Positions 15,162 to 50,578 of a DNA stretch of 64,000 nt are shown here, piece by piece. The position numbers and the translations under genes were made by a program. Within the stretch, counting starts at the first letter, position 1; each line of letters begins with the position of its first letter. Source of the DNA: Candidatus Desulfofervidaceae bacterium (GTDB lineage Bacteria; Desulfobacterota; Desulfofervidia; Desulfofervidales; Desulfofervidaceae); NCBI GenBank assembly GCA_030262855.1, contig JAJSZL010000002.1, positions 1,234-65,233 on the forward strand. Reading direction: 5' to 3'. Below the pieces are notes generated by a model. That model did not search any database. It worked only from the letters and a program-made list of their open reading frames with translations, and had not been told where the DNA came from.

Positions 15162-15171
15162 GAAGAAGGTT

Positions 15172-15576: not shown

Positions 15577-15594
15577 AATTTAAAAACTACCTTT

Positions 15595-16290: not shown

Positions 16291-16291
16291 G

Positions 16292-17578: not shown

Positions 17579-17730
17579 ATTAAAAAACAGTTTGGCCGAG
17601 TGCTGTGCAAATACTTGCTATACGCTTGATGTGTTAGATAAAATTTGCTTTCTTACTGTCCTGGGTGCTAACTTTGAGCGTTTTAACACTTTTACCCATT
17701 GCTCATTTACATAGCCGCACCTCCACACAC

Positions 17731-18948
17731 TCACCCTCTAACCACCTGCCCTAGTTTAAAGATAGGCAGGAAAATGGATAAAAGAATAAATCCGATAACT
17801 CCTCCTAGAATAATAATCATAACCGGTTCAATCATGGTGGTTAAATTTTTGGCAGCCAGTTTTACCTGATCATCATAAAACCGAGCGACTTTTTCTAACA
17901 TCACATCAAGCATACCCGTTTTTTCACCTGTAGAAGTCATCTGTATAATCAATTCTGGAAAGACTTTGTTTTTTTTCAAGGCATCGGCCAAGGAATCTCC
18001 TTGCTCTACAGCAAAAATGGCCTCATTAAGGGCCATCTCTATAACCTTATTTCGAACTATCTCCCGAGCTAGTTTTAAGGCAGCAATGGCAGGGATTCCA
18101 CTTTTTATAAGAATGCTAAAAGAAGCAGCAAAACGGGCTAAAGTAACTTTTTTAATAAGTGGGCCTATCAAAGGTAGCTTAAGTTTAAGCCTATCTAAAA
18201 CCAAACGGACTTTTTTCGTATTCCTCACTATCAAAAACAAGATAACTAAACTTATTGACATTATCAAAAAAATACCTATGTGCTGCTTAAGGCTGTCACT
18301 TATATAAAGCAATATCCGAGTGGGCAAAGGTAAAGGAACCTTAAATCGGGCATAGATTTTTGCAAAGATAGGAACAATCGTAGTCAACATAAAAATTACA
18401 GCGGTAATAGCAAACAAAATAAGAAAAACGGGGTAGGTAAGAGCTGATTTAATTTGTTGTTTCAAACCATGAACATCCTCTAAATACTTGACCAACTGCC
18501 GTAGGGTAATATCCAGATGCCCGCTGGCTTCACCTGTTTTCACCAAATTAATAACCAGGGGAGTAAAAATTTTAGTTTTTGCCAAGGCATCGGCAAATGT
18601 ATCTCCCTGAGATATATTTTGGGTCACCATGTTCAAAATTTTTTTTAAAGACTTTTTTTCTGATTCTTCAGCTAGACTTTTCAGGGCATCAATTAAAGGG
18701 ATACCCGCTTCCAGCATGGCGGCAAGCTGAGAGAATACTACTAATAAATCACTGGTCTTAATTTTATTTTGCAAAAAAAATAGAGAAATTGAAGAGGCAA
18801 AACTTCTACTTGAACTTGGTTTTACCGAAAGGACAGTAAAACCCTGCTTCTGAAAATTTTCAACCAGCTTTTCCCGACTCTCGGCTTCTATTTCTCCTTG
18901 AAGTTTCCTACCGTGGGTATCAACTATCCTGTATGAAAAAAGAGGCAT
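17731..18948 (-). CDS. pilC: type IV pilus platform protein PilC (GspF family)
   Basis: 405 aa with two T2SS-F repeats and three TM segments. Adjacent to the PilB ATPase. Confidence 0.9.
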   Translation of the reverse strand: MPLFSYRIVDTHGRKLQGEIEAESREKLVENFQKQGFTVLSVKPSSSRSFASSISLFFLQNKIKTSDLLVVFSQLAAMLEAGIPLIDALKSLAEESEKKSLKKILNMVTQNISQGDTFADALAKTKIFTPLVINLVKTGEASGHLDITLRQLVKYLEDVHGLKQQIKSALTYPVFLILFAITAVIFMLTTIVPIFAKIYARFKVPLPLPTRILLYISDSLKQHIGIFLIMSISLVILFLIVRNTKKVRLVLDRLKLKLPLIGPLIKKVTLARFAASFSILIKSGIPAIAALKLAREIVRNKVIEMALNEAIFAVEQGDSLADALKKNKVFPELIIQMTSTGEKTGMLDVMLEKVARFYDDQVKLAAKNLTTMIEPVMIIILGGVIGFILLSIFLPIFKLGQVVRG

Positions 18949-20645
18949 TAGACCACTCTCATTACTTCTTCAAAAGTAGTAATACCTTTCATTACCTTTT
19001 TTATTCCACTCTCCTGAAGCGTTTGCATACCTGTTGCTTTGGCTGCTTGACGGAGCTCTTCTAAGGATGCCTGTTTTAAGATAAGCTCTTTTATCCGTGG
19101 AGTTATTTCTAAAAATTCATAAATAGCTGTCCTCCCCAAATACCCCGTGTAACGGCAACGTGGACATCCCCGCCCCCGATAAAGAGTTATCTTTTTTGCC
19201 GTGTCAAGACCCATATATTCCATTATTTCTGGCTGGGGAGTAAAGGCCTCTTTACAGTCAAAACATATTTTCCGAACCAAACGCTGGGCTACAACCAAAT
19301 TCAAAGAGGCACATACCAAAAAAGGTTCTATACCCATATTGACCAAACGGACAACAGTGCTCACCGCATCATTAGCATGAAGCGTACTCAAAACTAAATG
19401 GCCAGTAAGAGCAGACCGCACAGCCATTTCGGCCGTTTCTAAGTCTCTAATCTCTCCTACCAAGATAATATCTGGGTCCTGACGTAAAATAGTCCGTAAG
19501 CCAGCAGCAAAAGTGAGTCCAATTTTGGGATTGATTTGAACTTGCTCTACGTCCTTTAGCTGATACTCCACCGGGTCCTCTAAAGTAATAATATTTTTTT
19601 CTGGAGATTTGATGAAATTGATAGCTGCATACAGGGTGGTGGTTTTACCACTTCCCGTGGGTCCCGTGAGGAGAATCATTCCATAAGAACGTTTAATCCA
19701 TTTTTTAAATATTTCTACATCTCTTTCATCAAACCCTACTTCTTCCAGTCCTAGAAGTTTATCCTTTTCCAACAAACGAATAACTATCTTCTCTCCAAAA
19801 ATGGTAGGCAAGCTAGAAACCCGCAAATCTACATTTCTGTGTTCATATTCAACAGTAAAACGCCCATCCTGCGGTAACCTTCGTTCCGCAATATCCATAC
19901 CTGCCAAAATTTTAATGCGGGAAATGATAGCATGTTGGACCTCTTTGGGAGGCGAAAGAATTTCATGCAAAACACCATCAATCCGAAACCGAACACTCAT
20001 TCTGTCTTCCCGTGGGGCAATATGAATATCACTCGCCCGCTCCCTGATGGCATTAAAAATTAGCTGATTGACAAATTTTACAACTGGAGCCTTCTCAACC
20101 TGTTCTTTTATAACCTCCAGATTAAGTTCTCCCTCACCTTTTTCCTTGTCTCTCTCTTGCTGGAGTTGAAATAAACCTTCAAGGGCATCAGAAACACTTG
20201 CTTCTTCAGTATAAAAATGAGCAATGACCTGCTTGATCTTTGTCTCAGGGGCAATGTAGGGTATAATTCTTAATTTAGTGATATTTTCAAGGGCTTCAAT
20301 TGCAGTCAAATCAAGCGGGTCAGCCATGACTACATGAAGATGGTCGTCTTCTTTTTTTAACGGAAGGACTACATATCGCTCTGCTAATTCCTTAGGAATC
20401 AAGCGAAAGGTATCTTTATTAACCTTAACTTCTGACAAATCACAATAAGGAATATGAAGCTGGCGACTAAGCACTTTGGCTATATCCTCTTCTTGTAACC
20501 AGCCTAGCTGAGTCAAAACAGCACCCAACCTCTCACCAGTTAATCGCTGACGTTTTAGAGCCCTCTCCAACTGGAGAGAAGTAATCAAACCCTCTTTAAC
20601 TAAAATATCTCCTAACTTTTCTGCACTTAAACGGTATTTTTTCAT
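18948..20645 (-). CDS. pilB: type IV pilus assembly ATPase PilB (GspE family) with an N-terminal MshEN-type domain
   Basis: 565 aa with Walker A GPTGSGKTT, Asp/His boxes and the tetracysteine CFDC...CPRC. The N-terminus carries two 24-residue RLGxxL..G..motifs. Confidence 0.93.
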   Translation of the reverse strand: MKKYRLSAEKLGDILVKEGLITSLQLERALKRQRLTGERLGAVLTQLGWLQEEDIAKVLSRQLHIPYCDLSEVKVNKDTFRLIPKELAERYVVLPLKKEDDHLHVVMADPLDLTAIEALENITKLRIIPYIAPETKIKQVIAHFYTEEASVSDALEGLFQLQQERDKEKGEGELNLEVIKEQVEKAPVVKFVNQLIFNAIRERASDIHIAPREDRMSVRFRIDGVLHEILSPPKEVQHAIISRIKILAGMDIAERRLPQDGRFTVEYEHRNVDLRVSSLPTIFGEKIVIRLLEKDKLLGLEEVGFDERDVEIFKKWIKRSYGMILLTGPTGSGKTTTLYAAINFIKSPEKNIITLEDPVEYQLKDVEQVQINPKIGLTFAAGLRTILRQDPDIILVGEIRDLETAEMAVRSALTGHLVLSTLHANDAVSTVVRLVNMGIEPFLVCASLNLVVAQRLVRKICFDCKEAFTPQPEIMEYMGLDTAKKITLYRGRGCPRCRYTGYLGRTAIYEFLEITPRIKELILKQASLEELRQAAKATGMQTLQESGIKKVMKGITTFEEVMRVV

Positions 20646-20799
20646 GATATTTTTACATTAATTTCATTAAGTATTTGGCCAAAAGGCCATGAGCCCTTTG
20701 CCCTATATACTTTCCCACTGTTCTACGTGCTACATTTTAACTTTGAACATTAGATATTTTAACCTATTTACACATTTACACTTTGACGCCTCTTCACAT

Positions 20800-22665
20800 T
20801 TACTCTCTCAATATTCTAGGCGTAATAAAAATGAGTAACTCCTCATTGCTCTCCAATTTATGCTTACCCCGGAAAAAGTAACCAAATAATGGAATTTTTC
20901 TAAACCAAGGCACAGATTTTTCTTCTTTAGTCCGATTTTCCTTATATAATCCCCCTATAACTACCGTCTCTCCATTTTTCACTAGCAAGGTGGTTTTAGC
21001 TTTCTTTTTGATGATTGTAGGAGCACCCAGGACGGTTTTGGTAAAATCGGCCTCTTCTTTAGAAGCCAAAATATCCATTTTAATCAGACCTGGTGAAACA
21101 ATATGAGGTTTAATTTTTAAACTCAACAAGGCATCAATCCAGGATAAAGTGGGATAGGCCTCCGTCGTCCCAGGAAAGGGTACGAGCTCTTGATAAGGAA
21201 TACGACGGCCGCTTTCTATTACTGCTTCTTTATTATCCATAGTGGCAATTCTGGGGCTGGAAAGGATCTTCACTCTTCCCTGGGATTCCAGGGCAAGTAA
21301 TTTTGCCTCAATATCAAAAGGAGCTCCAGACAGTTTACTAAAGGTCAAACCAAGCCCTCCCGTGGGAGTGCTTTGCGTTGGGAGAGGAATATTAACAATG
21401 GTATTTTCCGCCTCCCCGGAAACTTTTACTGAACCTATTTGCCCTGTAGCTCCCCACTGAATACCCAATTCTTTTTCATAGTCCTCACTCATCTCAACAA
21501 TCCGAGCTTCTATCATGACCTGAGGAATTTTTACATCTAGTTGTTTAATCAGTGCTACTATCTGACGCACATTTTCTTCTACATCGCAAATAATAAGGGC
21601 ATTCTTATCTTTATTCACCTGAATAAAACCATAAGGCTTTCCCTCTAGGTCTCGAGTAAGGTAGGGTTCCAAATTTTTTTTCAATTCTTCTATATCTAAA
21701 TAGTAAACTGGTTGCATCCAGGTCACCAAGGGTTGAGTTATCTTCTGGGCTACCTTTAATTTAGTTCTCAGCTCTACCTTTAGTCTGGCCTCCTGTTCTT
21801 GTTCTTCTAGCTCCATCTTTTTTACTTCTGCCTCTATTCGTCGTAAATTTAGCTCTTTCTTTTTTTCTTTTTCGTAAGTTTCACTTGTAATTACTCGAAT
21901 TAGGTTGTCCATTTGGGTGGCCACTAAACCATGGGAATCTAAAATAGATTGAAAGGCCTTGTCCCAGGGCACATCCACCAAGTGAATTGAGACCCTTCCT
22001 TTCACTTTAGGGCCAAAAATAATATTCAAGCCCGCTTCCTCTGCCATCCACTTTAATATCATCTTTAAATCCGCCTGCTCAAAGTCTAAAGAAACAGGAG
22101 TGCGAGGATAAGCTCTTGTCTTCTTGGATAAAGCAGGCTTAGATGGAGGTTCTTTTCTTTTAGGCAAAGCCTTTTGTTTAACTGGTCCCGGTGTTAAAAC
22201 CCGAGGGGTAATTATAGGAGTAAATACCACCGTTAATCCATTATCTTTAAAATATACATCACGGTGAAGCACTGTTTTTAAGTAAGCCACTAATTGAACC
22301 ATATTATCCTGAGGGAAGGAAATTACCTCAATATTTTTAATACCCCAATTATCTACTTCTAAAGATTTAACTCCTGGACTTAATTCTGCCCCAGGAATTT
22401 CTATGATTAAGCGTAATGGATTTAATAATTCATACACAGTGTAGGTTAAAGGCGCAGTAGAATGAATTGTCCAGAGTATCTTTCTCCCCTTTTCACTATC
22501 CACTTTTATGGATGTAATCCGCGCTTTTTTAGGAGATTGAAGTGATGCTGATGATGGAATAACTGCCTGTTTTGGAGCACAACTTATGAATATACAAAAG
22601 ATAACTCCTAAAAACTTAATTAGATATTTTTTGCCAAGTTTCTTGCACAATTTTCCACTCCCCAT
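20800..22665 (-). CDS. pilQ: type IV pilus secretin PilQ
   Basis: 621 aa with a lipoprotein-like signal (FISC), an AMIN-like N-terminal region, a long K/E coiled linker and a C-terminal secretin domain (VVIGGLYKE...VPWFRKIPLFGYFF). The start may be internal, since it overlaps the upstream gene by 50 nt. Confidence 0.88.
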   Translation of the reverse strand: MGSGKLCKKLGKKYLIKFLGVIFCIFISCAPKQAVIPSSASLQSPKKARITSIKVDSEKGRKILWTIHSTAPLTYTVYELLNPLRLIIEIPGAELSPGVKSLEVDNWGIKNIEVISFPQDNMVQLVAYLKTVLHRDVYFKDNGLTVVFTPIITPRVLTPGPVKQKALPKRKEPPSKPALSKKTRAYPRTPVSLDFEQADLKMILKWMAEEAGLNIIFGPKVKGRVSIHLVDVPWDKAFQSILDSHGLVATQMDNLIRVITSETYEKEKKKELNLRRIEAEVKKMELEEQEQEARLKVELRTKLKVAQKITQPLVTWMQPVYYLDIEELKKNLEPYLTRDLEGKPYGFIQVNKDKNALIICDVEENVRQIVALIKQLDVKIPQVMIEARIVEMSEDYEKELGIQWGATGQIGSVKVSGEAENTIVNIPLPTQSTPTGGLGLTFSKLSGAPFDIEAKLLALESQGRVKILSSPRIATMDNKEAVIESGRRIPYQELVPFPGTTEAYPTLSWIDALLSLKIKPHIVSPGLIKMDILASKEEADFTKTVLGAPTIIKKKAKTTLLVKNGETVVIGGLYKENRTKEEKSVPWFRKIPLFGYFFRGKHKLESNEELLIFITPRILRE

Positions 22666-23824
22666 TTTCCTTTTTTAAACATAAAGTCTTTAACCCTACA
22701 TCTTTATACTGTTCAGTCTGAAAATATTGTTTAAAGGATAGAACAACCCTTTCTCTTTGCTTAGAAAATTGAACATCTTTTAGCTCTAACTTAATCCTCT
22801 GGTAGCGATTAAACAATCCTTTTTTATATCTTCGCCAGGCTTTCCAATCCATTCCCTGATGAGAAAACTGAGATGAGTAACAACTCATATAATTCTCCAG
22901 GTCTTTATTCTCCCAGGTTTTTTCCCAAAAATTAAGAAAGGTCTCTATTTCTTTAGGCAATATCTTCTGCCTTTTTACAATAGTTGCAGTCCCTGGGCGT
23001 AACACAACATACCTTCCATCTTGGGCTAGGATTACCCGGTCTTCTCTGATAAAAGATACTTTATATCCTTTAATAATATCGCCTTCTTTGACAATTTGGT
23101 CATTGATCATGGCTTTATACACATTTTTAAATCGCATAATACCATGAAGGCGGAAAAGTGTCTTTCTACCCGAGGTCGCAGTTTTGGCTCTTGTTGTTAA
23201 AACCGAGGCAGAAAATGGATTGCGCTTTACCCGAGGTAAAGAAGGAGAAGAAAAATTAACTTTTACCTTGGAAAACGTTTGGCCTTTCATCTCAATACTG
23301 CTTAAAACCATTTTAACTTTAGGAAATCTTTGGTCCTTACTTTTTATGATGTTTAAAGTTTCAATGTTAAGGCCTAATGTATATTCTATGTCTTTGATAA
23401 ACCTCAACAATTGAGCATAAGGCGCTTCTGTTTCTAAGACGAATAAAAACTTGGTATAATAAAGATTTTCTTCCTGGGGTAAGAGTTTGACCTGCAACAC
23501 TTTGACTCCTTTAGCACTACTTAACTCAGCTATTTTTTGCAGGAAAAAAGAAGTCTGCTCATGCGATGGAACTTCATGGAGTTGGAAAAAGTTAATCCGA
23601 GCAATTCTTCCCTGCGAAAGGAGCCCTCTTTCTCTTTCAATTTCTTCTTTTATCTCGTTAATCCTTTCACGTAATTGCAAATTGTTTTTAGTCAATTGAG
23701 CCAGTTCACTTTTTTTATGCACTATAAAACCGTAAAAAGCCCCATTGCCGAGCAAAAGGGAAGCAAACAAAAGAAAAAAACAAATATTCCTTTTACGACC
23801 GGACATATTCTCCTGCCAATTCAA
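22616..23824 (-). CDS. PilO/PilP-like pilus alignment protein fused to a C-terminal ~105-aa NTF2/SnoaL-like module
   Basis: N-terminal TM plus coiled coil (PilO-like). A central beta-region LHGIMRFKNVYKAMINDQIVKEGDIIKGYKVSFIREDRVIL is PilP/GspC-like. The C-terminal FLNFWEKTWENKD...CYSSQF...WKIVQETW is paralogous to the C-termini of the ORFs at 26443 and 27960. Confidence 0.65.
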   Translation of the reverse strand: MNWQENMSGRKRNICFFLLFASLLLGNGAFYGFIVHKKSELAQLTKNNLQLRERINEIKEEIERERGLLSQGRIARINFFQLHEVPSHEQTSFFLQKIAELSSAKGVKVLQVKLLPQEENLYYTKFLFVLETEAPYAQLLRFIKDIEYTLGLNIETLNIIKSKDQRFPKVKMVLSSIEMKGQTFSKVKVNFSSPSLPRVKRNPFSASVLTTRAKTATSGRKTLFRLHGIMRFKNVYKAMINDQIVKEGDIIKGYKVSFIREDRVILAQDGRYVVLRPGTATIVKRQKILPKEIETFLNFWEKTWENKDLENYMSCYSSQFSHQGMDWKAWRRYKKGLFNRYQRIKLELKDVQFSKQRERVVLSFKQYFQTEQYKDVGLKTLCLKKENGEWKIVQETWQKISN

Positions 23825-24365
23825 ACATAAATTTATTAGAAGTATGTGGCACTGGCTGAATGCTCCTCAATTCTATCGGTTGAATACCCTGTAAAAACCT
23901 GTCTTCATTATTCAAGCGCCGGATTAAAACGCCCACCGCGTCTGCTGGGTCTTTTCGAGATGAACTCACAACTACACCCTTGATAATCAAAAATCGGGAA
24001 GTAGTCTGCTTTTGTTTATTTTCCTCAACACCTATCTCTGTTAAATAAACTTCAGGGGGTAAGGCCTCCGCCAAAAGAGTAAGTTTCTCTGTCCAGTTAA
24101 ATCTCCCTGCCGCCAAAGCATCTACCACCTCTTTCAAATTAGGAATACGCTCTTTTTCCATAGCACGTAGCTTGACCGTAAGCCGATAGTGTTCATTTCT
24201 GGCCCGCCAGAGTTTACTTTGAAGAGGCATATAGAAACCAAAAAACAGATAAATAGCTTCTACAATCACTACACATAGAAAAGCCGGAATTAGAAAAGAA
24301 GTTTTCGTGAATATTGAAAAATTGCCTTTTTCTCTTGTCAGATTTATCCGATATTTAGTTCCCAT
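23793..24365 (-). CDS. pilN: PilN-like fimbrial assembly protein
   Basis: 190 aa with N-terminal YRINLTRE (the INLL-type PilM-binding peptide) followed by a single TM. Sits directly downstream of pilM. Confidence 0.7.
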   Translation of the reverse strand: MGTKYRINLTREKGNFSIFTKTSFLIPAFLCVVIVEAIYLFFGFYMPLQSKLWRARNEHYRLTVKLRAMEKERIPNLKEVVDALAAGRFNWTEKLTLLAEALPPEVYLTEIGVEENKQKQTTSRFLIIKGVVVSSSRKDPADAVGVLIRRLNNEDRFLQGIQPIELRSIQPVPHTSNKFMFELAGEYVRS

Positions 24366-24366
24366 C

Positions 24367-25413
24367 TTACCTCAATGCCAGCCCTACCGCTATAGCTAAA
24401 CGGGGGGAGTTCTCTTCCACTAATTTTCCATCTAAAAGCGTTTTGTCAACTTGAATATTGTGCCACGGATTAAAAACCTCCACGGGCAACCCTACTTCTT
24501 GTTCAAGATATCCCTTTAAATCAGTATGCCCGTAACAACCACTTAAGACAATCCTGGCGAAACCATTGGGTTTATATTGATCCTCATAATAAGTAAGGGC
24601 ACGTTTGATCTCAAACAAAACACTATTCCAGGCGTTAAGGTCTTTTAACACCTCTTTAGACACAGGTGGTAATGATAAATACCGATTAAATAACGTTCCT
24701 CCCTCTGTATAGATATTAATCATCCCAAGTCTGTCTTCCAAATTTAAAAGCACTATTGTTTCATTTGGGGCAATAGGATAGTTAGCCAGATATGCATTCA
24801 TAAGAGCCAAGGGAGCCACATCGGTAATGTGTAATTTTAATTTGGCACCATAGCACGCATTAAGCAATTTATCTACTATTCCCCTGGGAACAGCTACCAA
24901 CAATATATCACTCACACCTTCTCTCCGTCCCAAAACCTGAAAATCAAAGGTCACAGAGTCCATTTCATATGGAATATGGCGTTTTGCTTCCCAAAAAATA
25001 GCTTCTTTCATTTCCTTCCGGGACAGACCAGGCATCCTAATCTGTCTTATGACCAGACTGGGATTATTTATTCCTACCACCAGTTTATATCTCCCGGTAA
25101 TACCTTCCATTATAGTCTTAATTCCAGTCAAGTAATTGCCTTTTTTGTATTTGACAATTCGGAAACCCAAAAGACGAGACCGGGTAATATTCGTCTCCAA
25201 ACTTACTAATATACAATAACTCTCCGCTATCTCTAAACCTACCTTTACCTGACTTAAAGGGAAAGGACTTTTTCTATCTAAAAAAAGCGAAGATATTTTT
25301 TCCTTTAATGCTACATCATCAAATAACTCTCTCTTAGGAGTTTCTTGCCGAATTACCTCAAGGAGTCTAGCCGTTGCAGCCAAATCTTTTTCTTTTTTAT
25401 CTTTATCTCCCAT
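24367..25413 (-). CDS. pilM: type IV pilus assembly protein PilM (actin-like ATPase fold)
   Basis: 348 aa of PilM size and position, at the head of pilMNO(P)Q. Contains ASKHA-like segments. Confidence 0.8.
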   Translation of the reverse strand: MGDKDKKEKDLAATARLLEVIRQETPKRELFDDVALKEKISSLFLDRKSPFPLSQVKVGLEIAESYCILVSLETNITRSRLLGFRIVKYKKGNYLTGIKTIMEGITGRYKLVVGINNPSLVIRQIRMPGLSRKEMKEAIFWEAKRHIPYEMDSVTFDFQVLGRREGVSDILLVAVPRGIVDKLLNACYGAKLKLHITDVAPLALMNAYLANYPIAPNETIVLLNLEDRLGMINIYTEGGTLFNRYLSLPPVSKEVLKDLNAWNSVLFEIKRALTYYEDQYKPNGFARIVLSGCYGHTDLKGYLEQEVGLPVEVFNPWHNIQVDKTLLDGKLVEENSPRLAIAVGLALR

Positions 25414-25424
25414 TTAACTAACCT

Positions 25425-26321
25425 TTATTTCTGACTCCAAAAATTCATAAAAGGAAAGTGCTTCTTCCCTCTATTGATCCACCTATAAAGAACTCCTTGT
25501 GTCTGTTCTTCTAAAGATTTTACTACGTAACCCACAACTTCTTTATCTACAACCTCTTTTCCTTTAATTAACATAGTAATTAAGGCATGGTGACATAAGG
25601 TAATTATTTTTCTTGGTTTTCCCTGGCTGTAGCGATGAATTTTTTTGAATGCCCCTTTGGTAAACAACTTTTTTCCAGGAGGTAGACCCGCTTTTAACAG
25701 CCGGTATCTAATCATCTCTTCTGTCTCGGTCAAATTAAATGGCTTTAAAGTATAGATAAAATTAGCTCTATCTATAAAATTCTCCAACTTTCTGAGCTTT
25801 TGGAGCAATTCAAGTTGGGCAAAGATAATTATTTGTAATAGTTTACACTCATTTGTTTCATAGTTAAGAAGGTTACGCAAAATTTCTAGAGAATGCATAT
25901 TTAAATTCTGACCTTCATCAATAAAAAGAATCACAATTTTACCTTCATTGACCCCCTTTTGAAATAAATAATGCTGAAGGGCTTCTTTTTGAGAAGACCA
26001 CGAGGGATTATGGCTGTTAATCCCAAAGATATGAAGCAAGTGCCCAAGAAACTCAGCAGGGGTTTTAAAAATAGGGTCTAAAATGAGATGAAATAAAAAG
26101 CGCTCGTTCTCTCTAGAAAACTGCTGAATCAGCAAACGACTAAGGGTTGTTTTTCCTGTGCCCACATCTCCTAAAATTAAATTCAACCCACGCTTGAGAC
26201 GCAAGGATATTTCCAAGTGATATACACATTCTTTTAAATGGGGAGATAAATAAAAAAACTCTGGATTAGGAGAATTGGAAAAAGGCTCCTTTTCTAACCC
26301 TAACAATCTGTAATAGCCCAT
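25425..26321 (-). CDS. ExeA/GspA-like AAA ATPase
   Basis: 298 aa with Walker A GDVGTGKTT and Walker B ILFIDEGQ. The overall ExeA-like layout lacks a peptidoglycan-binding domain. Confidence 0.75.
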   Translation of the reverse strand: MGYYRLLGLEKEPFSNSPNPEFFYLSPHLKECVYHLEISLRLKRGLNLILGDVGTGKTTLSRLLIQQFSRENERFLFHLILDPIFKTPAEFLGHLLHIFGINSHNPSWSSQKEALQHYLFQKGVNEGKIVILFIDEGQNLNMHSLEILRNLLNYETNECKLLQIIIFAQLELLQKLRKLENFIDRANFIYTLKPFNLTETEEMIRYRLLKAGLPPGKKLFTKGAFKKIHRYSQGKPRKIITLCHHALITMLIKGKEVVDKEVVGYVVKSLEEQTQGVLYRWINRGKKHFPFMNFWSQK

Positions 26322-26442
26322 ACACTATTGATAGCACAAAGTAAAGTATGAGCACAAGTTTTTTATAAAGTAGAAATTGTGGAAATGAACTCCTCAATGT
26401 GGAGTAATAGAAAAAATTGTTACATCACCAATTTATCTTAAT

Positions 26443-27876
26443 TTATAAAGGTTCCCAATTTTCCAACAAAATGTGCCAACCAGAATTTTCCCCTTTTTTT
26501 ACCAGAAATAGTGTTTTAAAACCCTCATCTTGATAATTTTCTGATTTATATTTTTGCAAAAATCTTGTCATCACCACCTGACCTAAGTAGGGGTAGCAAT
26601 TGTAAAAATAAATCTCTATGTTATTAAAGCTAACCCGGATATTCTTCCGCCTTTTAGCCAGGTGGCGTTTATGTTCAAGCCAGCTTTTTAAAGTATAACC
26701 CCCAGTGTGAAACTTAGGATGATAACAACTTCCATAGGTATCAAAATCTTTATTCTCCCAGGCCTTCTTCCAGCGTTTTAAAAAAGCATTAATTTCCTTA
26801 CGCCATTTTTGATTTTCCTGAGGACTAATCCATTTAATTTCTTTAGTGATTACTAAAGGTGTCTCATCAAGCCGAATAGCGTGAGAGAGCTCAAGTAAAT
26901 CAGCATTGGTCATCACTATACATCCTCGTGTAGCTTGGGGCAACCAGGGCTTGAAATCATGATTGGTTCCATGTAACCAGATACCATGGCCATCTTTCCC
27001 TAAGAATCGGTCAAACAAATTGGGATAATCCAACACAAAGGCCATATTCCCATAATCATCCCCAAATTTTTTGAGGTCTGTCCCCTCAATCAATCTTTTC
27101 AGAAAATATACCCCTTCAGGTGTATTGTTATCTCCCTCTTTAAACTTATCAAAATGATTTTTCCCCGTTGTGCAGGGGAAAACCTGCTTTAACTGCATTC
27201 CTTTTGGGGTAATAGTGTAAAAAAGCAAGCGCTGTTTTTCCTTATCTACAAGCAAACACACCTTTCCTGGAGGTAAGGCAATTATATTTAACGGAATTTT
27301 ACCTAAGGGAATTTCTAAGAAACCCTCTTCCCAAGAAAACCTCTTTAAAAGCTCCTCCATATACGATGTCTTTATCTTCCCATTTCTTGTCTCTCGCTGC
27401 ATAAGTTCTTCCACTACTTGTTTTGCTTCTTTATACTCACCTCTAGCCTCATGCAGCAGGGCCAGATCTAAAGCTGCATTGGTATAAAGCGGGTCATACT
27501 CAAGGGCCTTTTTAAAACAGTTCAAAGCCATCTCTTGGTCTTTCAACAACCACTCTACCTTACCTAAATAATAAAGAGCAATAGGGTCATTAGGATTAAT
27601 TTCTAGCAGCTGTCTTATCTTTTTTAGATCTTCTGCCGAACCAGTCTTCCATAATTCCTTCACAGCCATGAATAGATATATTCGGGCCAGAGCCCGATTA
27701 ATCTCTTTTGAAGCCGGCCTTTTGCGAGAAATCTCTACTAAATAATCTCTAGCCTTATCAAAACATCCATTTTTTAAATATTGCTCCACTAAAGGAGGAA
27801 GCTCCTCTGCCTTTACATGTGGAATCCAGCTTAATCCAAAAACCAATCCCAATATTATAATCGCTTTTGCTCGCAT
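26443..27876 (-). CDS. secreted TPR + YkuD L,D-transpeptidase + C-terminal NTF2/SnoaL-like module
   Basis: Signal peptide, then TPR repeats. YkuD catalytic motif HGIWLHGTNH...ATRGCIVM. The C-terminal FLKRWKKAWENKDFDTYGSCYHPKF...WHILLENW is paralogous to the ORFs at 22616 and 27960. Confidence 0.8.
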   Translation of the reverse strand: MRAKAIIILGLVFGLSWIPHVKAEELPPLVEQYLKNGCFDKARDYLVEISRKRPASKEINRALARIYLFMAVKELWKTGSAEDLKKIRQLLEINPNDPIALYYLGKVEWLLKDQEMALNCFKKALEYDPLYTNAALDLALLHEARGEYKEAKQVVEELMQRETRNGKIKTSYMEELLKRFSWEEGFLEIPLGKIPLNIIALPPGKVCLLVDKEKQRLLFYTITPKGMQLKQVFPCTTGKNHFDKFKEGDNNTPEGVYFLKRLIEGTDLKKFGDDYGNMAFVLDYPNLFDRFLGKDGHGIWLHGTNHDFKPWLPQATRGCIVMTNADLLELSHAIRLDETPLVITKEIKWISPQENQKWRKEINAFLKRWKKAWENKDFDTYGSCYHPKFHTGGYTLKSWLEHKRHLAKRRKNIRVSFNNIEIYFYNCYPYLGQVVMTRFLQKYKSENYQDEGFKTLFLVKKGENSGWHILLENWEPL

Positions 27877-27959
27877 TCTTATGTTCCTATTTTTGAACTA
27901 TAATATCTATAGGTTTTGAGGGAATTAGTCAATATAAGCTTTTTACCAGTCACTATTTA

Positions 27960-29498
27960 CTAATTACTATTCGCTACTTGAGGATGCCATTCTTCTTTAA
28001 TGATGCGCCAGTCCTTTTGCCATTTTTCCAAATAAAGACACTTCTCCCCTTCGTCTTCGTGTTTATCATCTCGATAATACTGATGAAAACATGCAATTGT
28101 CATCTTGCCTGTGTGATTAATTCTCAAGTCCTTGATCTCTATTTTGATATTATTTCGTTTAGAAAAAATCCTTTGTTTCCAGGCCAACCATGCCTTCAAA
28201 TCCATTTCCTGACTATAAAATCTAGGACTATAACAAGCTGCATAGGCAGCCAAATCTTCATGTTGCCAATAGTTACGCCATTTCTGAATAAAGTCTTTAA
28301 TACTCGTATCTGAAGAAATTTTTGTAGATAGAGGTTTAACTAAAGACAATTTGGTTTTAATTTGATTACCTAAATGAGGATTTAAGGCAAGCACCCGTTC
28401 ATACTCCTGGCGGGCCAGGTCATATTTTCCCATAGCTTCAAAAGTCAGGCCCAAACCATAGTGAATTTGATAATCGTCTTTTAGGGCAAGGGCCTTTTTA
28501 AAGGCACCCATTGCCTTCTCATATTGACCCAGTTGGTAGTAAGTTAAACCCAAATAATGATGGACATAAGCCTGTTCTGGCAAAGCAACAGCCGCTTTTT
28601 TTAACACAGAAAGGGCTTTTATATATTTTTTTAACAAGTAATAAATTTCACCTAAAGTATAATAAATTTCTTTCTTTTCTGGTGCTAAGGCTAAAGCAAT
28701 CTCATAGTTCCGGGCAGCCTTTTCCAATTGTCCATCTTCTTTGGCCATCTGAGCCTGGTGGATAAAAAAAGAAACACCATACTCCTCGTCCAGCCCGGCA
28801 GCCAAACGATACTCGGCTATAGCTTTATTAAAATCGCCTTCCTCTTGATAAAGTTTACCTAGAAGAAAATGTGCCCTGGCACTCTTAGGGTTTACCTGAA
28901 GGATACGTTCATACTCTGCCCGGAGCTCTTCGTTTGTAGGATTTTGCTGATAAAGCTGTTGATACTCTATTATCGCCTTTCCTACATAAAGACGCGCTAG
29001 ATTAAAGCGAGCTATGCTGTAATCAGGCTTTATTTCAATGGCCTTTTTAAAAACGGCCTCAGCCTGCTCAGTCTGACCCTGCACCCAGTAAATCACCCCT
29101 AAAGTATTATAGGCCTTCACTTCGTGAGGGAAATCTTTGATAATTGTCTTTAAATGTAAAATGGCCTTATCATATTCTTTTTTATCAATATATGCCCGAA
29201 TAAGATTATACCGTGCGGTAAGGAAATTAGGATTTAAAGAAAGGGCCTTAAGCCACAGTTTTACTGCTTTATCTAGCTCGCCTATTTTCACATAAACCAT
29301 GCCTAAATCATTATATACTTCTACCGCCTTTGGTGCTTGGGTAAGGATTTTTTCAAAGACACGCTGGGCTTGCTTATATTGACCTGCTTGGAAATAAGTC
29401 AGGCCCACCTGGCGGTCTTTTTCTAAAGCAGGGGTAAGGGCATAACTAAAAATAGACCAAAAACTCAAAAAAAACAGGCAAGATAAAATACGTTTCAT
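27960..29498 (-). CDS. secreted multi-TPR protein (PilF/PilW-like candidate) with the same C-terminal NTF2/SnoaL-like module
   Basis: 512 aa with a signal peptide and about 10 TPR repeats. C-terminal FIQKWRNYWQHEDLAAYAACYSPRF...WRIIKEEW. Confidence 0.75.
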   Translation of the reverse strand: MKRILSCLFFLSFWSIFSYALTPALEKDRQVGLTYFQAGQYKQAQRVFEKILTQAPKAVEVYNDLGMVYVKIGELDKAVKLWLKALSLNPNFLTARYNLIRAYIDKKEYDKAILHLKTIIKDFPHEVKAYNTLGVIYWVQGQTEQAEAVFKKAIEIKPDYSIARFNLARLYVGKAIIEYQQLYQQNPTNEELRAEYERILQVNPKSARAHFLLGKLYQEEGDFNKAIAEYRLAAGLDEEYGVSFFIHQAQMAKEDGQLEKAARNYEIALALAPEKKEIYYTLGEIYYLLKKYIKALSVLKKAAVALPEQAYVHHYLGLTYYQLGQYEKAMGAFKKALALKDDYQIHYGLGLTFEAMGKYDLARQEYERVLALNPHLGNQIKTKLSLVKPLSTKISSDTSIKDFIQKWRNYWQHEDLAAYAACYSPRFYSQEMDLKAWLAWKQRIFSKRNNIKIEIKDLRINHTGKMTIACFHQYYRDDKHEDEGEKCLYLEKWQKDWRIIKEEWHPQVANSN

Positions 29499-29582: not shown

Positions 29583-29621
29583 ACAAATTTTGTCGTTCAA
29601 ATGACAAAATTTGTCAATTTT
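29583..29621 (+). promoter_or_regulatory. candidate enhancer (UAS): perfect 10-bp inverted repeat plus a third half-site
   Basis: AAATTTTGTC (29585-29594), an 8-nt spacer, then GACAAAATTT (29603-29612), followed by an overlapping TTTGTCA. Lies 71-110 nt upstream of the -24 element. Homologous to 14582-14620. Confidence 0.6.
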
Positions 29622-29691: not shown

Positions 29692-29707
29692 TGGCACATT
29701 TTTTGCT
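29692..29707 (+). promoter_or_regulatory. sigma-54 (-24/-12) promoter of the cytochrome operon
   Basis: TGGCACATTTTTTGCT is an exact match to TGGCAC-N5-TTGCT. It sits about 135 nt upstream of ATG 29843, which has an AAGGAGGT RBS. Confidence 0.8.
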
Positions 29708-29842
29708 CCTTTGTTAAATAGGGAGAGTTGGGTTGTAAAATGGTAAGAAATAATTTGACAAAATATTTTATAATTGACATTTTAAGCATAAATGATTATT
29801 TTTTAAAAAAGGGTTAAGGTTTAAGAAAGGAGGTAAATAGAA

Positions 29843-30982
29843 ATGCGAAAATGGAGTTTAATTCTGGTGCTTATTGTAGGGTTAGTTGGCCTTTATGGGG
29901 TGGCACAGGCAAAGGTAAGCGGCCCGTGTGCAAATTGTCATACCATGCATTATAGTCAAAGTCCTTGGCCTTCGGAGTGGCCATCAAGTTCACCCTCAGG
30001 GGTGTCTGGTCCTTATAAAGCATTAACTACTAGCGACTGTGTCGGCTGTCATAGTGGAAGTAGCGCAACAAAAGCAGGTGGCACTATTCCAGTAGTAAAT
30101 ATGACAACAAAACCTACTGGTACTGGTCCAGAAAAATCTTTAGCTGGTGGTAATTTTTATTGGGTAGCTACAAATGGTGGTAATGATTCCACGAAGGGAC
30201 ATAATGTAAAGTATCTAGCTGCGGTGGATTCAAATCTTAATTATGACCCACCTGGTTGGGATCCAAATGCTACGAGTGGTTTTACCTTTGGTCAGGTGGC
30301 TGGTGGAGCAGCTAATTGGGGAAGCAATCAACTGACCTGTGCTGGTACCTACGGTTGCCACGGCGACCACAGCCAAGCAGATGACTTTGCGGCTATTTAT
30401 GGCTCACACCATACTGACGACAGTGTGCTTAAAGCCGCTACGCTAGACGAAACTGCTCAGGGAACAAGTGTAGGAACAAGCTATAGATTTTTGGCCGGTA
30501 TTCATGGTATTGAAGACTCTGATTGGGAATATTCTGCTACAGATGGTACCACCGATCACAACGAATACAAAGGAGCTAGTTCAAATCAAGATTATGCGGA
30601 TAAAACTACCATCAGTTATCTCTGTGCCGAGTGCCATGGTTACTTTCACAGTGAAATCGGTGGCACTTCTCATCCATGGTTAAGACACCCGACTGATATT
30701 GTCTTGCCGGCTGCTGGTGAATACCAATATTATAATGGAAACACTACTGGCGGTGGGAGTGCTAGTGATTATAGCATTGTAGCTCCTGTTGGAATGGCAA
30801 CTTTATCTTCCCGCTCAACTGCTACTCCTGGTACAAGTGATGCAATTGTCCTTTGTATCTCCTGTCATCGGGCTCACGGCTCAGAGTATCCCGATTTGTT
30901 AAGATGGGATTACAGCACAATGGAAGCTGGCGGAGGAGCTGGCAATGTGGGTTGCTTCATCTGCCATACGCAGAAGGATTAA
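29843..30982 (+). CDS. secreted OmcS-family multihaem c-type cytochrome (5 CXXCH + 1 CX5CH)
   Basis: Sec signal ending AQA. Haem motifs are CANCH, CVGCH, CAGTYGCH, CAECH, CISCH and CFICH. The blocks CxxCHTMH, GGNFYWV, KGHN, LRHP, CISCHRAHGS and C-terminal CHTQKD parallel my recollection of Geobacter OmcS (CEGCHTMHN, GGDFGWV, KGHNI, LRHP, CLSCHRAHAS, CNKCHAKD). Confidence 0.8.
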   Translation: MRKWSLILVLIVGLVGLYGVAQAKVSGPCANCHTMHYSQSPWPSEWPSSSPSGVSGPYKALTTSDCVGCHSGSSATKAGGTIPVVNMTTKPTGTGPEKSLAGGNFYWVATNGGNDSTKGHNVKYLAAVDSNLNYDPPGWDPNATSGFTFGQVAGGAANWGSNQLTCAGTYGCHGDHSQADDFAAIYGSHHTDDSVLKAATLDETAQGTSVGTSYRFLAGIHGIEDSDWEYSATDGTTDHNEYKGASSNQDYADKTTISYLCAECHGYFHSEIGGTSHPWLRHPTDIVLPAAGEYQYYNGNTTGGGSASDYSIVAPVGMATLSSRSTATPGTSDAIVLCISCHRAHGSEYPDLLRWDYSTMEAGGGAGNVGCFICHTQKD

Positions 30983-31051
30983 TCGGATCAACAATATGAA
31001 AGTAAAAAGCCCGGTATCCCCCGGACTTTTTTAAACTTCAGGGTGTAAAAA

Positions 31052-32107
31052 ATGATGTCGAGCAGAAACTATAATCTTCGGATTTTCGGCTTGTTTTTAG
31101 GACTAATCTTTCTTTTTCCTCTCTTTGTTCATGCCAGGGTTACGGGCGTGTGTTCAAACTGTCATACCATGCATTATAGTCAAAATGGAGGACAACTTAG
31201 CTCATGGGGTAGCAATGGACCTTATCGGGCCTTATTAGTCAATGACTGTGTGGGCTGTCACACAGGCACAAATACTGGCAGTAATACTACACCTTATGTC
31301 TTTTCTGAAAGTGAACCAACTTATGGAACAAATACCCTTGCAGGTGGAAATTTTTATTGGGTAGCTCATGGGTGTGATGAATGTGGTCACAATGTAACTG
31401 CTATTCCTGGTGTAAATCAAGATAGCAATTTTACTCAAACTCCTGGTTTTGTGAGTGGTAAAACCTGCAGTAGTTGTCATGGTAGTGGCAATATGGTACT
31501 TACTAAATGTGTCTTTTGTCATAATCCAAAACATCATGCAGATGATAGTGGCCCAGTTGTAGGTGATGATGAAGAGGTTAAGTATAGGTTTTTAAGCCTT
31601 GACTTTTTCCACCCATCTACTTTTCAGGAAGGTACATATAATTTTTATGGGGTTGCAGGTATAGAAGATGATGATTGGGAATATACTGTAAGTTCAAGTG
31701 ACCATAATGAATATTGTGGTGCTACTAGTTCAGAGGATTATTCAGATGCTTCTCATTCTATAAGTAGATTTTGTGCTGCCTGTCATTGGGGATTTTATGG
31801 AGAGAATACCGGGCATTGGAAAAGGCATCCATCAGATTATGCCTTACCAAATAGTGGTGAATATGCAAATTATACAACATATAATCCTTTAGCTCCTATA
31901 GCTAGACTTGAAAGCACTTTAACAGGTATGACAGGACCAAGCTCAACTGTAACACCAGGACAGGACCAAGTTTCCTGTCTTTCCTGCCATCGTCCACACG
32001 GCTCACCCTATCCAGATATGTTGCGTTGGGACTATAACACCTGTCAGGCTGGCACAGCTAATTCTAATTGCGGTTGTTTTGTCTGTCATACAAAGAAAGA
32101 TGAATAA
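31052..32107 (+). CDS. secreted OmcS-family multihaem c-type cytochrome paralogue (7 CXXCH)
   Basis: Signal peptide ending VHA. Haem motifs are CSNCH, CVGCH, CSSCH, CVFCH, CAACH, CLSCH and CFVCH. It shares with the upstream paralogue the blocks CHTMHYSQ, GPY.AL...DCVGCH, LAGGNFYWVA, GIEDDDWEY, DHNEY, RHP.D, SCHR.HGS.YPD.LRWDY and CHT.KD. Confidence 0.8.
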   Translation: MMSSRNYNLRIFGLFLGLIFLFPLFVHARVTGVCSNCHTMHYSQNGGQLSSWGSNGPYRALLVNDCVGCHTGTNTGSNTTPYVFSESEPTYGTNTLAGGNFYWVAHGCDECGHNVTAIPGVNQDSNFTQTPGFVSGKTCSSCHGSGNMVLTKCVFCHNPKHHADDSGPVVGDDEEVKYRFLSLDFFHPSTFQEGTYNFYGVAGIEDDDWEYTVSSSDHNEYCGATSSEDYSDASHSISRFCAACHWGFYGENTGHWKRHPSDYALPNSGEYANYTTYNPLAPIARLESTLTGMTGPSSTVTPGQDQVSCLSCHRPHGSPYPDMLRWDYNTCQAGTANSNCGCFVCHTKKDE

Positions 32108-32133
32108 ATGAGGTAAACTTCTCATTTTAAAAA

Positions 32134-32168
32134 GGCGGTAGGCAAAATTTTCATGCCTGCTGCCTTTT
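32134..32168 (+). terminator. rho-independent terminator after the cytochrome operon
   Basis: GGCGGTAGGCA / loop / TGCCTGCTGCC forms an 11-bp stem (2 G-U pairs) followed by TTTT. Confidence 0.6.
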
Positions 32169-32344
32169 AATTTTGCATTAATATCAAAGGATAAACCTTA
32201 AATATCAAATCAATCTAAAAGGATAAAGGCAGGTTAAAAGATTAGAAACTAAGGAACCGGAAAATTAAAGATTCCAAACCTCAATAATTATAGTCCCCTG
32301 AATAACATGTAAATTACTAATAATGGACAATCACTTCTAAGCAT

Positions 32345-42347: not shown

Positions 42348-42686
42348 ATGGCTATTATCAAAGCAGCCGAAATAGAAAACAAGCATCCTGGCACAGGAAG
42401 AATGATAGGGAGAATAATGGCTGATTATGTTTCTCGTGGGGATACAATTGATTTTGCAGGTTTTGAATCTTTCAGTAATTCCTTTGCTGATGAGTTTGTA
42501 AAAACCTTTATAGAAAAATATGGGAAAGAAGCCTTTCAGGAATTGAATTTTGTAAATACTAGTGAACTGCTTAAAACACTTCTCAAGCGGGCATTTGTCA
42601 GGAGAACTCTTGATGATAAAAGAGAAAAAAGTCCAATTGACTTTACACGGTGGGAACAGCTTAGAGTTTCTTCGTTGTTTGCTTGA
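42348..42686 (+). CDS. STAS-like (DUF4325-type) small protein
   Basis: 112 aa with a GGGAG RBS. The core GDTIDFAGFESFSNSFADEFV is typical of STAS-like/anti-anti-sigma-like domains. Its 3' end overlaps the next gene by 74 nt. Confidence 0.6.
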   Translation: MAIIKAAEIENKHPGTGRMIGRIMADYVSRGDTIDFAGFESFSNSFADEFVKTFIEKYGKEAFQELNFVNTSELLKTLLKRAFVRRTLDDKREKSPIDFTRWEQLRVSSLFA

Positions 42687-43461
42687 GTCTGAGATCGAAT
42701 GGGAATCTTCTTGCCCTAAAATTCTTGATCTTTCCCAGGTATTTTTTGTTACTCCGATAGTATGTGTATGGGTGAAATATTTTACCATCAAAAACTGGAA
42801 AACTCTTAAACCCTACAGTTATGAAGCTTCCCAATATTTAGAATGGATGAATATCTATGCGAATCAGAACTATGGAGACCAGAGATATATACCAACATTT
42901 CACCTGGTTGATGCAAGTGAGACCAACGAGGTAAGAAAAAGATTACTGGACATTTTCAAGAATTGGATGAATAAGGAAACCAGAGAATTTTTAAGTTACT
43001 CAATAAGCGAATTGATGGAAAATGTTTTTTTTCATGCTAAGTCTGAAGAAGGCTTGGTAATTCATGTTCAAAAATATGGAGCTTTTGACAATAGAATAGA
43101 AGCCTGTATAGTAGATTTTGGACAGGGAATAGCTAACTCCATGGCTGAAAATCCTGAATTTAGAGAGCGACCAGAAGAACAAAGATTTATAGCAGGGTTG
43201 ACACCTAGATGTACTTCCAAACCAGGCAGGCATACAGGAGAGGGATTAAGCTCTGTTCTTGAGTGGATTAAGCAAAATGATGATGCCCAAGGAGTGATTA
43301 TTTCTCAAAATTGTGTTTGGGGTAAACTTAAAAGAAAAGACGAAAAATGGTTGAAATACAATCTACCTAAATGGCCAGGTACTTTGATCTGGATGTCATT
43401 TCCTCGGGATTCCAGATTATCTCTTAATTCTGTGTGGGAAAAATTGGGATTTTCACTATAA
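42613..43461 (+). CDS. GHKL (histidine kinase/SpoIIAB-like) ATPase with an N-terminal STAS-like region
   Basis: ATG 42613 with a GGAGA RBS. N-box ELMENVFFH, G1 DFGQGI and G2 GEGLSS. The N-terminal ILDLSQVFFVTP is STAS-like. The track's longer start (42562) is unlikely. Confidence 0.65.
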   Translation: MIKEKKVQLTLHGGNSLEFLRCLLESEIEWESSCPKILDLSQVFFVTPIVCVWVKYFTIKNWKTLKPYSYEASQYLEWMNIYANQNYGDQRYIPTFHLVDASETNEVRKRLLDIFKNWMNKETREFLSYSISELMENVFFHAKSEEGLVIHVQKYGAFDNRIEACIVDFGQGIANSMAENPEFRERPEEQRFIAGLTPRCTSKPGRHTGEGLSSVLEWIKQNDDAQGVIISQNCVWGKLKRKDEKWLKYNLPKWPGTLIWMSFPRDSRLSLNSVWEKLGFSL

Positions 43462-43773
43462 TTGACAATCATAAAAAATGTCATTTCACCGCTGCGGCCT
43501 TGCGGCAATAATTTTGTCAAATGAATCCACAAGCACATTGACTAGCTGGGTGATTTTAGCAAGGTTGTTGGAAAAATGCGGTGCAGTTTATAAGGGAGAA
43601 ATAAAAAATGTCTCTAAAAACGGAAAAGGACAATCCGAATTGGCCTAAAACGATAGACGAGGTAGCTGAGAGAAACTCCTTGTTAAACTGTCTGAAAAAG
43701 AAACAGAAGTTATTTTATACAACTAAATAGCCAGCGGCTTGTTTAAGAAAACAAATAAGTAAAAGTAGATAAA

Positions 43774-44349
43774 ATGGACACAAGGATAAAGGAATGGAGT
43801 AAATTAAAGTTTTGTGATCCCGCTAAAGCTCTGCCAAAAATACGAAAATGGCAGGAGTTTATTGCGGCTAGTAATCTTGACGATAAAATTAAAAATTTAA
43901 GAACTCGAAAATTAAGAAAACATCTAGAAAAACGAATAGCCTCTTTATTTTGTTATGGAATGGGTATTTACCTTAATAAAACAATCTTTTTCGCACCAGC
44001 ACCAAACGATAATTCAGATTATGATGCTGTAGCAAAACGTATAGAAGGTAGTGAAATACATTATACACCTATACAAATTAAAGAAGTTGTACCAGAAAGG
44101 TTAAATCCAAAAACAGATATCAACCAAGAAATTGCCAAGTTATGTCGGTATCCCGTATCTAATGATACCGTTGTTGTAATGCACATCAATCGAGCTGGGC
44201 TATTAAATTTGTCATCTATAAAGCTGCCTGAATTGAATATTGCAGAATTGTGGTTACTGGGAGCTTCTAGCCCAGATCAGAATAAATGGTTTATTGCAGG
44301 CAACTTATTAGATAAACCTGCAATATTTGAATTTAATTATCCAGTCTAA
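43774..44349 (+). CDS. hypothetical protein, possible PD-(D/E)xK nuclease fold
   Basis: 191 aa. The DYDAV...IQIKEV spacing resembles the D...(E/Q)xK restriction-endonuclease-like core. This is a weak motif-level call only. Confidence 0.45.
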   Translation: MDTRIKEWSKLKFCDPAKALPKIRKWQEFIAASNLDDKIKNLRTRKLRKHLEKRIASLFCYGMGIYLNKTIFFAPAPNDNSDYDAVAKRIEGSEIHYTPIQIKEVVPERLNPKTDINQEIAKLCRYPVSNDTVVVMHINRAGLLNLSSIKLPELNIAELWLLGASSPDQNKWFIAGNLLDKPAIFEFNYPV

Positions 44350-44420
44350 CAAAAATCAGCAGAAAATCAGGAGGTCAGGGGTTTAATTCCCTGCTGGCTT
44401 CAGAAAAAATGAGAAGTAAT

Positions 44421-44455
44421 GGCCAATTAGGTTGACCAGCCGATTGGCCTTTTTC
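44421..44455 (+). terminator. rho-independent terminator
   Basis: GGCCAAT / loop / ATTGGCC followed by TTTTT. The stem sequence is related to that of the 42132 terminator. Confidence 0.7.
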
Positions 44456-44470
44456 TTTTAGTAGTAGTTT

Positions 44471-44492
44471 TAGTCACCTATTAGTCACCAAT
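44471..44492 (+). repeat. tandem 11-mer x2 (TAGTCACCTAT TAGTCACCAAT)
   Basis: Read directly from the sequence; the two units share 10/11 identity. Confidence 0.85.
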
Positions 44493-46992: not shown

Positions 46993-47006
46993 TAAGGATA
47001 AAAAAT

Positions 47007-50577: not shown

Positions 50578-50578
50578 T

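Follow-up and report, generated by a model that had tools for sequence, protein, structure and literature searches.

A tandem pair of OmcS-family cytochrome genes in a Desulfofervidaceae bacterium, with six and seven predicted haem sites

OmcS of Geobacter sulfurreducens (GSU2504; PDB 6EF8/6NEF) is a six-haem cytochrome that polymerises into filaments, in which all 12 axial haem ligands are histidines and one ligand of haem 5 is contributed by the neighbouring molecule (Filman et al. 2019; PMC6584659). The same inter-subunit ligation has been described in both OmcS and OmcE (Wang et al. 2022; PMC9473688); the related cytochromes with six haems include OmcT (PMC6584659), and homologues of OmcS are widespread (Portela et al. 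2024). Here we analyse two adjacent OmcS-like genes, LWW94_00580 (open reading frame A, ORF A) and LWW94_00585 (ORF B), within a window of 64 kb (contig JAJSZL010000002.1, positions 1,234 to 65,233; assembly GCA_030262855.1) from a Desulfofervidaceae bacterium related to the thermophiles that live in syntrophy with ANME-1 (anaerobic methanotrophic) archaea.

Foremost among the candidates for 'wires' leading electrons from methane-oxidising archaea to sulfate-reducing partners, a transfer which limits the release of methane from the sea floor, are OmcS-like cytochromes. The S6 Table of Murali et al. 2023 (PLoS Biol 21:e3002292) lists exactly these two genes, under the genome Desulfofervidaceae sp. 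PB11946 FWG155, as OmcS-like putative filament formers with 5 haems (LWW94_00580) and 7 haems (LWW94_00585), so that this interpretation is already published for them. That study proposed filament function and a role in direct interspecies electron transfer (DIET), and reported OmcS-like genes among the most highly expressed in ANME-1/HotSeep-1 consortia; in its available text there is no mention of the division into an A-type and a B-type clade that is described below, nor of the regulatory elements.

Membership of the OmcS family

When compared by BLASTP with the reference OmcS sequence (PDB 6EF8_A), ORF A was 26% identical (E 4e-12) and ORF B 24% identical (E 1e-9), both alignments being collinear across about 360 residues. 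Clade profiles, built from ORF A with 113 homologues and from ORF B with 98, were searched against the PDB, and for each of them OmcS (6ef8_A) was the sole significant match; the A-clade profile retrieved it with E 9.9e-20 (next match, E 0.053) and the B-clade profile with E 5.8e-24 (next match above 0.05). AlphaFold2 models of the two proteins (mean predicted local distance difference test scores of 86.4 for ORF A and 70.5 for ORF B) matched only 6ef8_A when searched against the PDB with Foldseek, with probabilities of 0.99 (A) and 1.00 (B) and template modelling (TM) scores of 0.38 (A) and 0.48 (B), low values that are expected when a protein poor in secondary structure is modelled without its haems. 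Single-sequence phmmer searches of ORF A and ORF B against the PDB did not find OmcS; this is a failure of sensitivity and no argument against homology, since BLASTP, the profiles and Foldseek all find it. Pairwise alignment, profile search and, less clearly, predicted fold agree, and it is near certain that both proteins belong to the OmcS family.

An earlier reading of the window from its sequence alone (hereafter, the sequence-only reading) had proposed this homology on the strength of sequence blocks ascribed to OmcS, and both the alignment and the profile search bear it out; those blocks are all present, and collinear, in the true OmcS sequence. They comprise the haem-1 block (CANCHTMH in ORF A and CSNCHTMH in ORF B, against CEGCHTMH in OmcS), GGNFYWV against GGDFGWV in OmcS (consensus GG(N/D)F(Y/G)WV), KGHN in ORF A and CGHN in ORF B against KGHN, LRHP and KRHP against LRHP, CISCHRAH and CLSCHRPH against CLSCHRAH, and, at the C-terminus, CFICHTQKD and CFVCHTKKDE against CNKCHAKD. 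Scans with Pfam and NCBIfam placed only the generic Paired_CXXCH_1 domain at the C-terminus of the two proteins, and neither collection returned an OmcS-specific family for them.

Both ORFs were recovered exactly where the sequence-only reading had put its two tandem genes (Table 1). At NCBI, ORF A has a 100% identical protein entry, LWW94_00580, from a Candidatus Desulfofervidaceae metagenome-assembled genome. The two are same-strand tandem paralogues with 41% identity to each other (E 3e-73), and no other ORF of at least 80 aa in the window bears a CXXCH motif. Sec signals had likewise been predicted for both proteins; a signal peptide can be read by eye in each, and the AlphaFold2 models begin with helices at residues 2-20 (ORF A) and 5-21 (ORF B). 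Secretion of both proteins by the Sec route is very likely.

Haem sites, distal ligands and the two clades

The haem sites of ORF A lie at residues 29, 66, 166, 261, 338 and 371, in an order collinear with that of OmcS (9, 47, 140, 239, 328 and 400), and those of ORF B, also collinear, lie at 34, 66, 139, 153, 241, 309 and 342, one more than in OmcS. The sequence-only reading had credited ORF A with six sites like OmcS. The number and the order stand, with the qualification that only five of the sites are CXXCH; the sixth, third along the chain, is a CX5CH motif, CAGTYGCH. Its count of seven canonical CXXCH motifs in ORF B, including an extra CVFCH, proved right. Six covalently bound bis-His haems in ORF A and seven in ORF B are very likely, and we infer that the CX5CH site is among those occupied.

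In the alignment of 114 A-type sequences, residues C166, G168, G171, C172 and H173 of the CX5CH site are invariant, and the pattern CxGxxGCH was present in 119/119 close homologues of ORF A and in 117 of the 132 full-length family representatives. The AlphaFold2 model places the motif within a β-hairpin (strands 165-167 and 171-173), and HMMER aligned CAGxYGCHG without a gap onto CSSCHDPHG of OmcS. On the sequences, either of two origins is possible: three residues may have been inserted inside a CXXCH motif, or the second cysteine and the histidine may have moved to where OmcS has H147. The term 'CX5CH' retrieved no literature, which differing notations may explain. The figure of five haems that the S6 Table of Murali et al. 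2023 gives for ORF A apparently reflects a CX5CH site that was not counted; plain CXXCH counts of the A-type clade, the dominant one in the environment, come out one haem too few.

OmcS contains eleven histidines in addition to the six of its haem motifs. Nine non-motif histidines are invariant or nearly so in the A-type alignment, and six of these, H36, H120, H176, H269, H282 and H345 of ORF A, align with OmcS H16, H110, H147, H247, H257 and H335. Because they are the only non-motif histidines of OmcS that are common to the A-type clade, these six are the obvious choice as its six distal ligands. In the B-type clade, with its seven CXXCH motifs, the conserved non-motif histidines also number exactly seven (H41, H113, H161, H162, H218, H259 and H316 of ORF B), of which H41, H113, H259 and H316 keep distal histidine positions of OmcS. 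ORF B also holds 19 cysteines, 14 of them in its seven CXXCH motifs, the others being C107, C110, C222, C331 and C340; the first two belong to a CDECGH motif (aa 107-112, 31370-31387) which recurs in the closest relatives of ORF B in Candidatus Desulfofervidus auxilii (in one of them as CDGCGH), where ORF A and OmcS have (S/E)xxKGH. The five cysteines outside the haem motifs might form disulfides or a metal site.

A-type proteins combine five CXXCH motifs with CxGxxGCH; B-type proteins are without CxGxxGCH and mostly carry seven CXXCH motifs, a number found in 75 of 114 full-length B-type homologues (about two-thirds). The family as a whole comprises 922 clusters at 50% identity (E <= 1e-3). 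Among GTDB species representatives it was confirmed at no fewer than 504 loci, with carriers among the Thermodesulfobacteriota, Nitrospirota, Aquificota and Thermosulfidibacter; cultured carriers include Thermodesulfobacterium hydrogeniphilum and Malonomonas rubra. The A-type clade is itself widespread, occurring in Thermodesulfobacteriota, Nitrospirota, Aquificota and others. Gene neighbourhoods were surveyed at 80 loci, half of which (40/80) carried two to four OmcS-like genes. The order of A-type and B-type genes could be classified at 23 multi-copy loci; an A-type gene followed by a B-type gene on the same strand was the commonest arrangement (13/23, in several phyla), and it is also the order in two Desulfofervidaceae relatives, loci L001 and L003.

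Polymerisation and its alternatives

The first haem motif of both proteins is followed by TMH, and the histidine that closes it is retained in both, as the sequence-only reading had reported. H36 of ORF A is invariant in the 114 A-type sequences together with C29, C32, H33 and M35; H41 of ORF B is invariant in the 99 B-type sequences together with C34, C37 and H38. Such invariance fits the role of an essential ligand. The inter-subunit ligand of OmcS is reportedly His16, as assigned by Wang and colleagues in 2019. The sequence-only reading had held that His16 ligates a haem of the neighbouring subunit; of this claim, the ligation of haem 5 by a neighbour is the documented part (PMC6584659).

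Identity between ORF A and ORF B is unevenly spread, at 59% and 66% in the two termini and 23-29% in the centre, and the conserved termini correspond to the protomer interface of OmcS. Because of the homology to OmcS, the invariance of H36 and H41, and termini that are the parts best conserved between the two proteins, we consider head-to-tail polymerisation through H36/H41 the best-supported model and hold it with moderate confidence. Each protein would probably polymerise head to tail, with H36 or H41, three residues after the first haem motif, providing the CxSCH haem of the following subunit with its sixth ligand. Given the homology to OmcS, the proteins would most likely lie outside the cell and carry electrons along a closely packed chain of bis-His haems; extracellular location, polymerisation and a role in interspecies electron uptake are all inferred.

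A number of observations weigh against this model. CxxCH-TMH was found in 124 of the 132 full-length family representatives (~94%), most of the others having xMH; being near-universal, it is a hallmark of the family which does not single out ORF A or ORF B, and it cannot separate polymerising from non-polymerising members. The only solved filament structure for the OmcS family in the PDB is that of G. sulfurreducens OmcS (6ef8/6nef), and the physiological role of cytochrome filaments is itself a matter of dispute (PMC11077965). The proteins also depart from OmcS in their conserved histidines: H189, H190 and H239 of ORF A, which do not vary among 114 A-type homologues, are without equivalent in OmcS, and OmcS H147 and H247 are without equivalent in ORF B, which has H161, H162 and H218 instead, so that the haems at the centre of ORF B are probably packed differently from those of OmcS. 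The TM-scores are low (0.38-0.48) and come from models without haems, and neither a porin-cytochrome conduit nor any other cytochrome is encoded in the window.

It is possible, if less probable than polymerisation, that ORF A and ORF B are OmcS-family proteins which do not polymerise, and that they serve as monomeric or loosely associated carriers in the periplasm or at the cell surface; the TMH histidine would then ligate a haem of its own chain, or one haem would stay His/water-ligated, and the same non-polymerising state may hold for OmcS paralogues such as OmcT. Polymerisation has been shown for OmcS itself only, within a very large family, and the secretion or anchor genes typical of nanowire clusters are not next to the pair, all of which suit a simple carrier. 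Such a role is harder to reconcile with a histidine that is invariant where OmcS has it, just as the mature chain begins, with the complete set of OmcS distal histidines kept in ORF A, and with interface-forming termini that are the most conserved parts between the two proteins.

The tandem arrangement raises the further alternative of a single heteropolymeric filament built from both proteins, in which ORF B might be a minor, capping or branching subunit. The recurrence of the A-then-B order in several phyla, the retention of the pair in L001 and L003, the likeness of the N- and C-terminal interface regions (59-66% identical) and an attenuator-like hairpin between the genes, which suggests unequal stoichiometry, would all agree with a shared filament; yet the tandem omcS-omcT genes of G. 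sulfurreducens give filaments of OmcS only (PMC6584659), the closest Ca. D. auxilii relatives of ORF B (81% identical) lie apart from the closest relative of ORF A there, and haem number and ligand set differ between the two proteins. We regard co-assembly as very unlikely. Unlikely too, if to a slightly lesser degree, is that the A-type clade forms a structurally distinct OmcS-like nanowire, with a new haem-3 motif, the surplus histidines as a metal or ligand-switch site, and a conserved seven-haem B-type partner acting in a heteropolymer or as a dedicated adaptor; were this so, the result would be a two-component wire unlike the Geobacter model.

Surroundings of the pair and comparison with known systems

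The pair is flanked by candidate regulatory elements (Table 1). TGGCAC-N5-TTGC has its sole exact match in the window, on either strand, 137 nt 5' of the ORF A ATG. None of the related loci has an exact match to the sigma-54 consensus; one-mismatch GG-N10-GC elements stand at the corresponding place in L001 and L003, where they are the only such elements upstream of the A-type genes (upstream-element regions about 9780-9920 in L001 and about 9760-9910 in L003). An alignment of the sequences preceding the A-type genes of the window, L001 and L003 has its best-conserved block about 100 nt further upstream, in the inverted repeat TTTGTC-N8-GACAAA. The GGAGG of the ribosome-binding site is kept in both relatives, and comparable GC hairpins with a U-tract follow their A-type genes; the z-scores of the hairpins after A-type genes are modest (-1.3 to -1.9). 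The terminator after ORF B is a strong one, folding at -30.4 kcal/mol (z = -5.36; 0/200 shuffles fold as well).

Taken together, the promoter element, the palindrome, the intergenic hairpin and the terminator suggest sigma-54-dependent transcription with ORF A in excess over ORF B. Transcription would probably start at the sigma-54-type promoter upstream of ORF A, and the hairpin after that gene would make ORF A the abundant product and ORF B a lower-level product of read-through. A histidine kinase and a sigma-54 regulator of the NtrC/PilR type are encoded at 11833-14582, beside pseudopilin genes; this regulator (13218-14582) is a candidate for acting at the upstream elements.

Table 1. Coordinates (positions in the window) of the gene pair and of the features assigned to it.
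Feature	Position	Strand	Details
Inverted repeat TTTGTC-N8-GACAAA, then a further TTTGTC	29588..29616	+	candidate activator-binding site; putative function
Sigma-54-type -24/-12 element, TGGCACATTTTTTGC	29692..29706	+	consensus match only
Ribosome-binding site, AAGGAGGT	29827..29834	+	8 nt before ORF A ATG
ORF A (LWW94_00580)	29843..30982	+	379 aa; A-type OmcS-like hexahaem cytochrome
Signal peptide, ORF A	29843-29911	+	aa 1-23, read by eye; MRKWSLILVLIVGLVGLYGVAQA followed by KVSGPC, likely cleavage between AQA and K
Haem-1 site and histidine, ORF A, C29-ANC-H33-TM-H36	29927..29950	+	aligns with OmcS C9-EGC-H13-TM-H16
Third haem site, ORF A, C166-AGTYG-C172-H173 (CX5CH)	30338..30361	+	aligns with OmcS C140-SSC-H144
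Surplus histidines, ORF A, H189-H190 and H239	30407-30412, 30557-30559	+	invariant; nine non-motif histidines against six haems
Hairpin then T-run between ORF A and ORF B	31004..31032	+	terminator-/attenuator-like; RNA fold
ORF B (LWW94_00585)	31052..32107	+	351 aa; B-type OmcS-like heptahaem cytochrome
Signal peptide, ORF B	31052-31135	+	aa 1-28, read by eye; ...FLFPLFVHA followed by RVTGVC, likely cleavage between VHA and R
Haem-1 site and histidine, ORF B, C34-SNC-H38-TM-H41	31151..31174	+	invariance in B-type alignment
Central haem-site pair, ORF B, C139-SSC-H143 and C153-VFC-H157	31466..31522	+	both invariant in B-type alignment; single site in OmcS
Intrinsic terminator after ORF B	32130..32176	+	strong; 15-bp stem then U-tract

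On the upstream side of ORF A, and read in the divergent direction, is an MSHA-like type IV pilus or type II secretion system cluster (14679-29498, both strands). It includes pseudopilins (14679-17578; three or four with N_methyl motifs) and also encodes GspF, GspE with an MshEN domain, a secretin with an AMIN domain, PilM, an AAA_22 ATPase and TPR proteins; a Cds6_C NTF2-like domain closes three of the proteins (22616-23824, 26443-27876 and 27960-29498), in one of which there is a YkuD L,D-transpeptidase domain as well. This cluster was considered as a dedicated exporter of the cytochromes and rejected as a conserved linkage, being absent beside the pair in L001, L003 and L004; homologues of GspE, GspF or the secretin occurred within 10 kb at only 2 of the 80 loci. 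The arrangement of the DIET/oet cluster, in which OmcX and the OetABI porin-cytochrome conduit are encoded next to an OmcS-like gene, was not found in the window, where no further ORF contains CXXCH; such genes can, according to Murali et al. 2023, lie elsewhere in the genome. Downstream of ORF B are alaS, recA and other housekeeping genes. At about 42500-51800 the GC content falls to 33-37%, against about 40-45% elsewhere in the window, and this stretch, which contains ORFs without a Pfam match, a SIR2_2-domain protein (47099-48259) and a DUF4145 protein, has the appearance of an island of mobile or defence genes.

Other loci of the family have different surroundings. Of the closest Ca. D. 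auxilii relatives of ORF B, the one examined is surrounded by several further multihaem cytochrome genes, an arrangement similar to the oet/DIET cluster of Murali et al. 2023. In Ca. D. auxilii CP013015 (L006, 13010-20694) and in L004 (1-7615), OmcS-like genes stand beside a recurring set that encodes a YNCE/NHL β-propeller, proteins of ~690-930 aa without a Pfam match and a SurA-like peptidyl-prolyl isomerase, joined in L006 and L007 by a small LpoB/CsgG-like lipoprotein. This set, which has no member in the window, might work as a module for assembly or secretion. Some 2.5 Mb contigs that bear the label 'Candidatus Methanoperedenaceae archaeon GB37/GB50' contain near-identical copies (P0273 and P0288) of the B-type gene of Ca. 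D. auxilii; the label is probably a taxonomic misassignment of the bacterial partner's genome.

Beyond the published interpretation of these genes, what is new here is the CX5CH site, the surplus histidines of the A-type, the recurrent A-then-B pair and the regulatory elements, to which are added the B-type clade's own set of distal histidines and the finding that the adjacent pilus cluster is not a conserved neighbour. For those who would express or model such proteins, an A-type gene is usually followed by a seven-haem paralogue, and the A-type protein has three histidines not found in OmcS.

Compared with OmcS, the pair shares the family, the order of haem sites, the conserved blocks and the position of CxxCH-TMH directly after the signal-peptide cleavage site, and ORF A keeps all six OmcS distal histidine positions. 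The differences are these: identity to OmcS is only 24-26%, site 3 is CX5CH in ORF A against CXXCH in OmcS, ORF A has three extra invariant histidines, ORF B has seven haem sites and no counterparts of OmcS H147 and H247, and an insertion of ~50 residues before the last haem site of OmcS is missing in both.

The omcS-omcT genes of G. sulfurreducens likewise form two adjacent same-strand paralogues of the OmcS family (Murali et al. 2023). ORF A and ORF B differ from them in being 41% identical to each other, in belonging to separate, widely distributed subclades and in having 6 and 7 sites, respectively. OmcS and OmcT, on the other hand, are close paralogues, each with six canonical sites. For the additional residues between the two motif cysteines of the ORF A CX5CH site, haem 1 of OmcZ offers a precedent among nanowire cytochromes (PMC9473688), although OmcZ is unrelated in sequence and fold, has a spacer of 14 residues and lacks the inter-subunit histidine ligation that is characteristic of OmcS.

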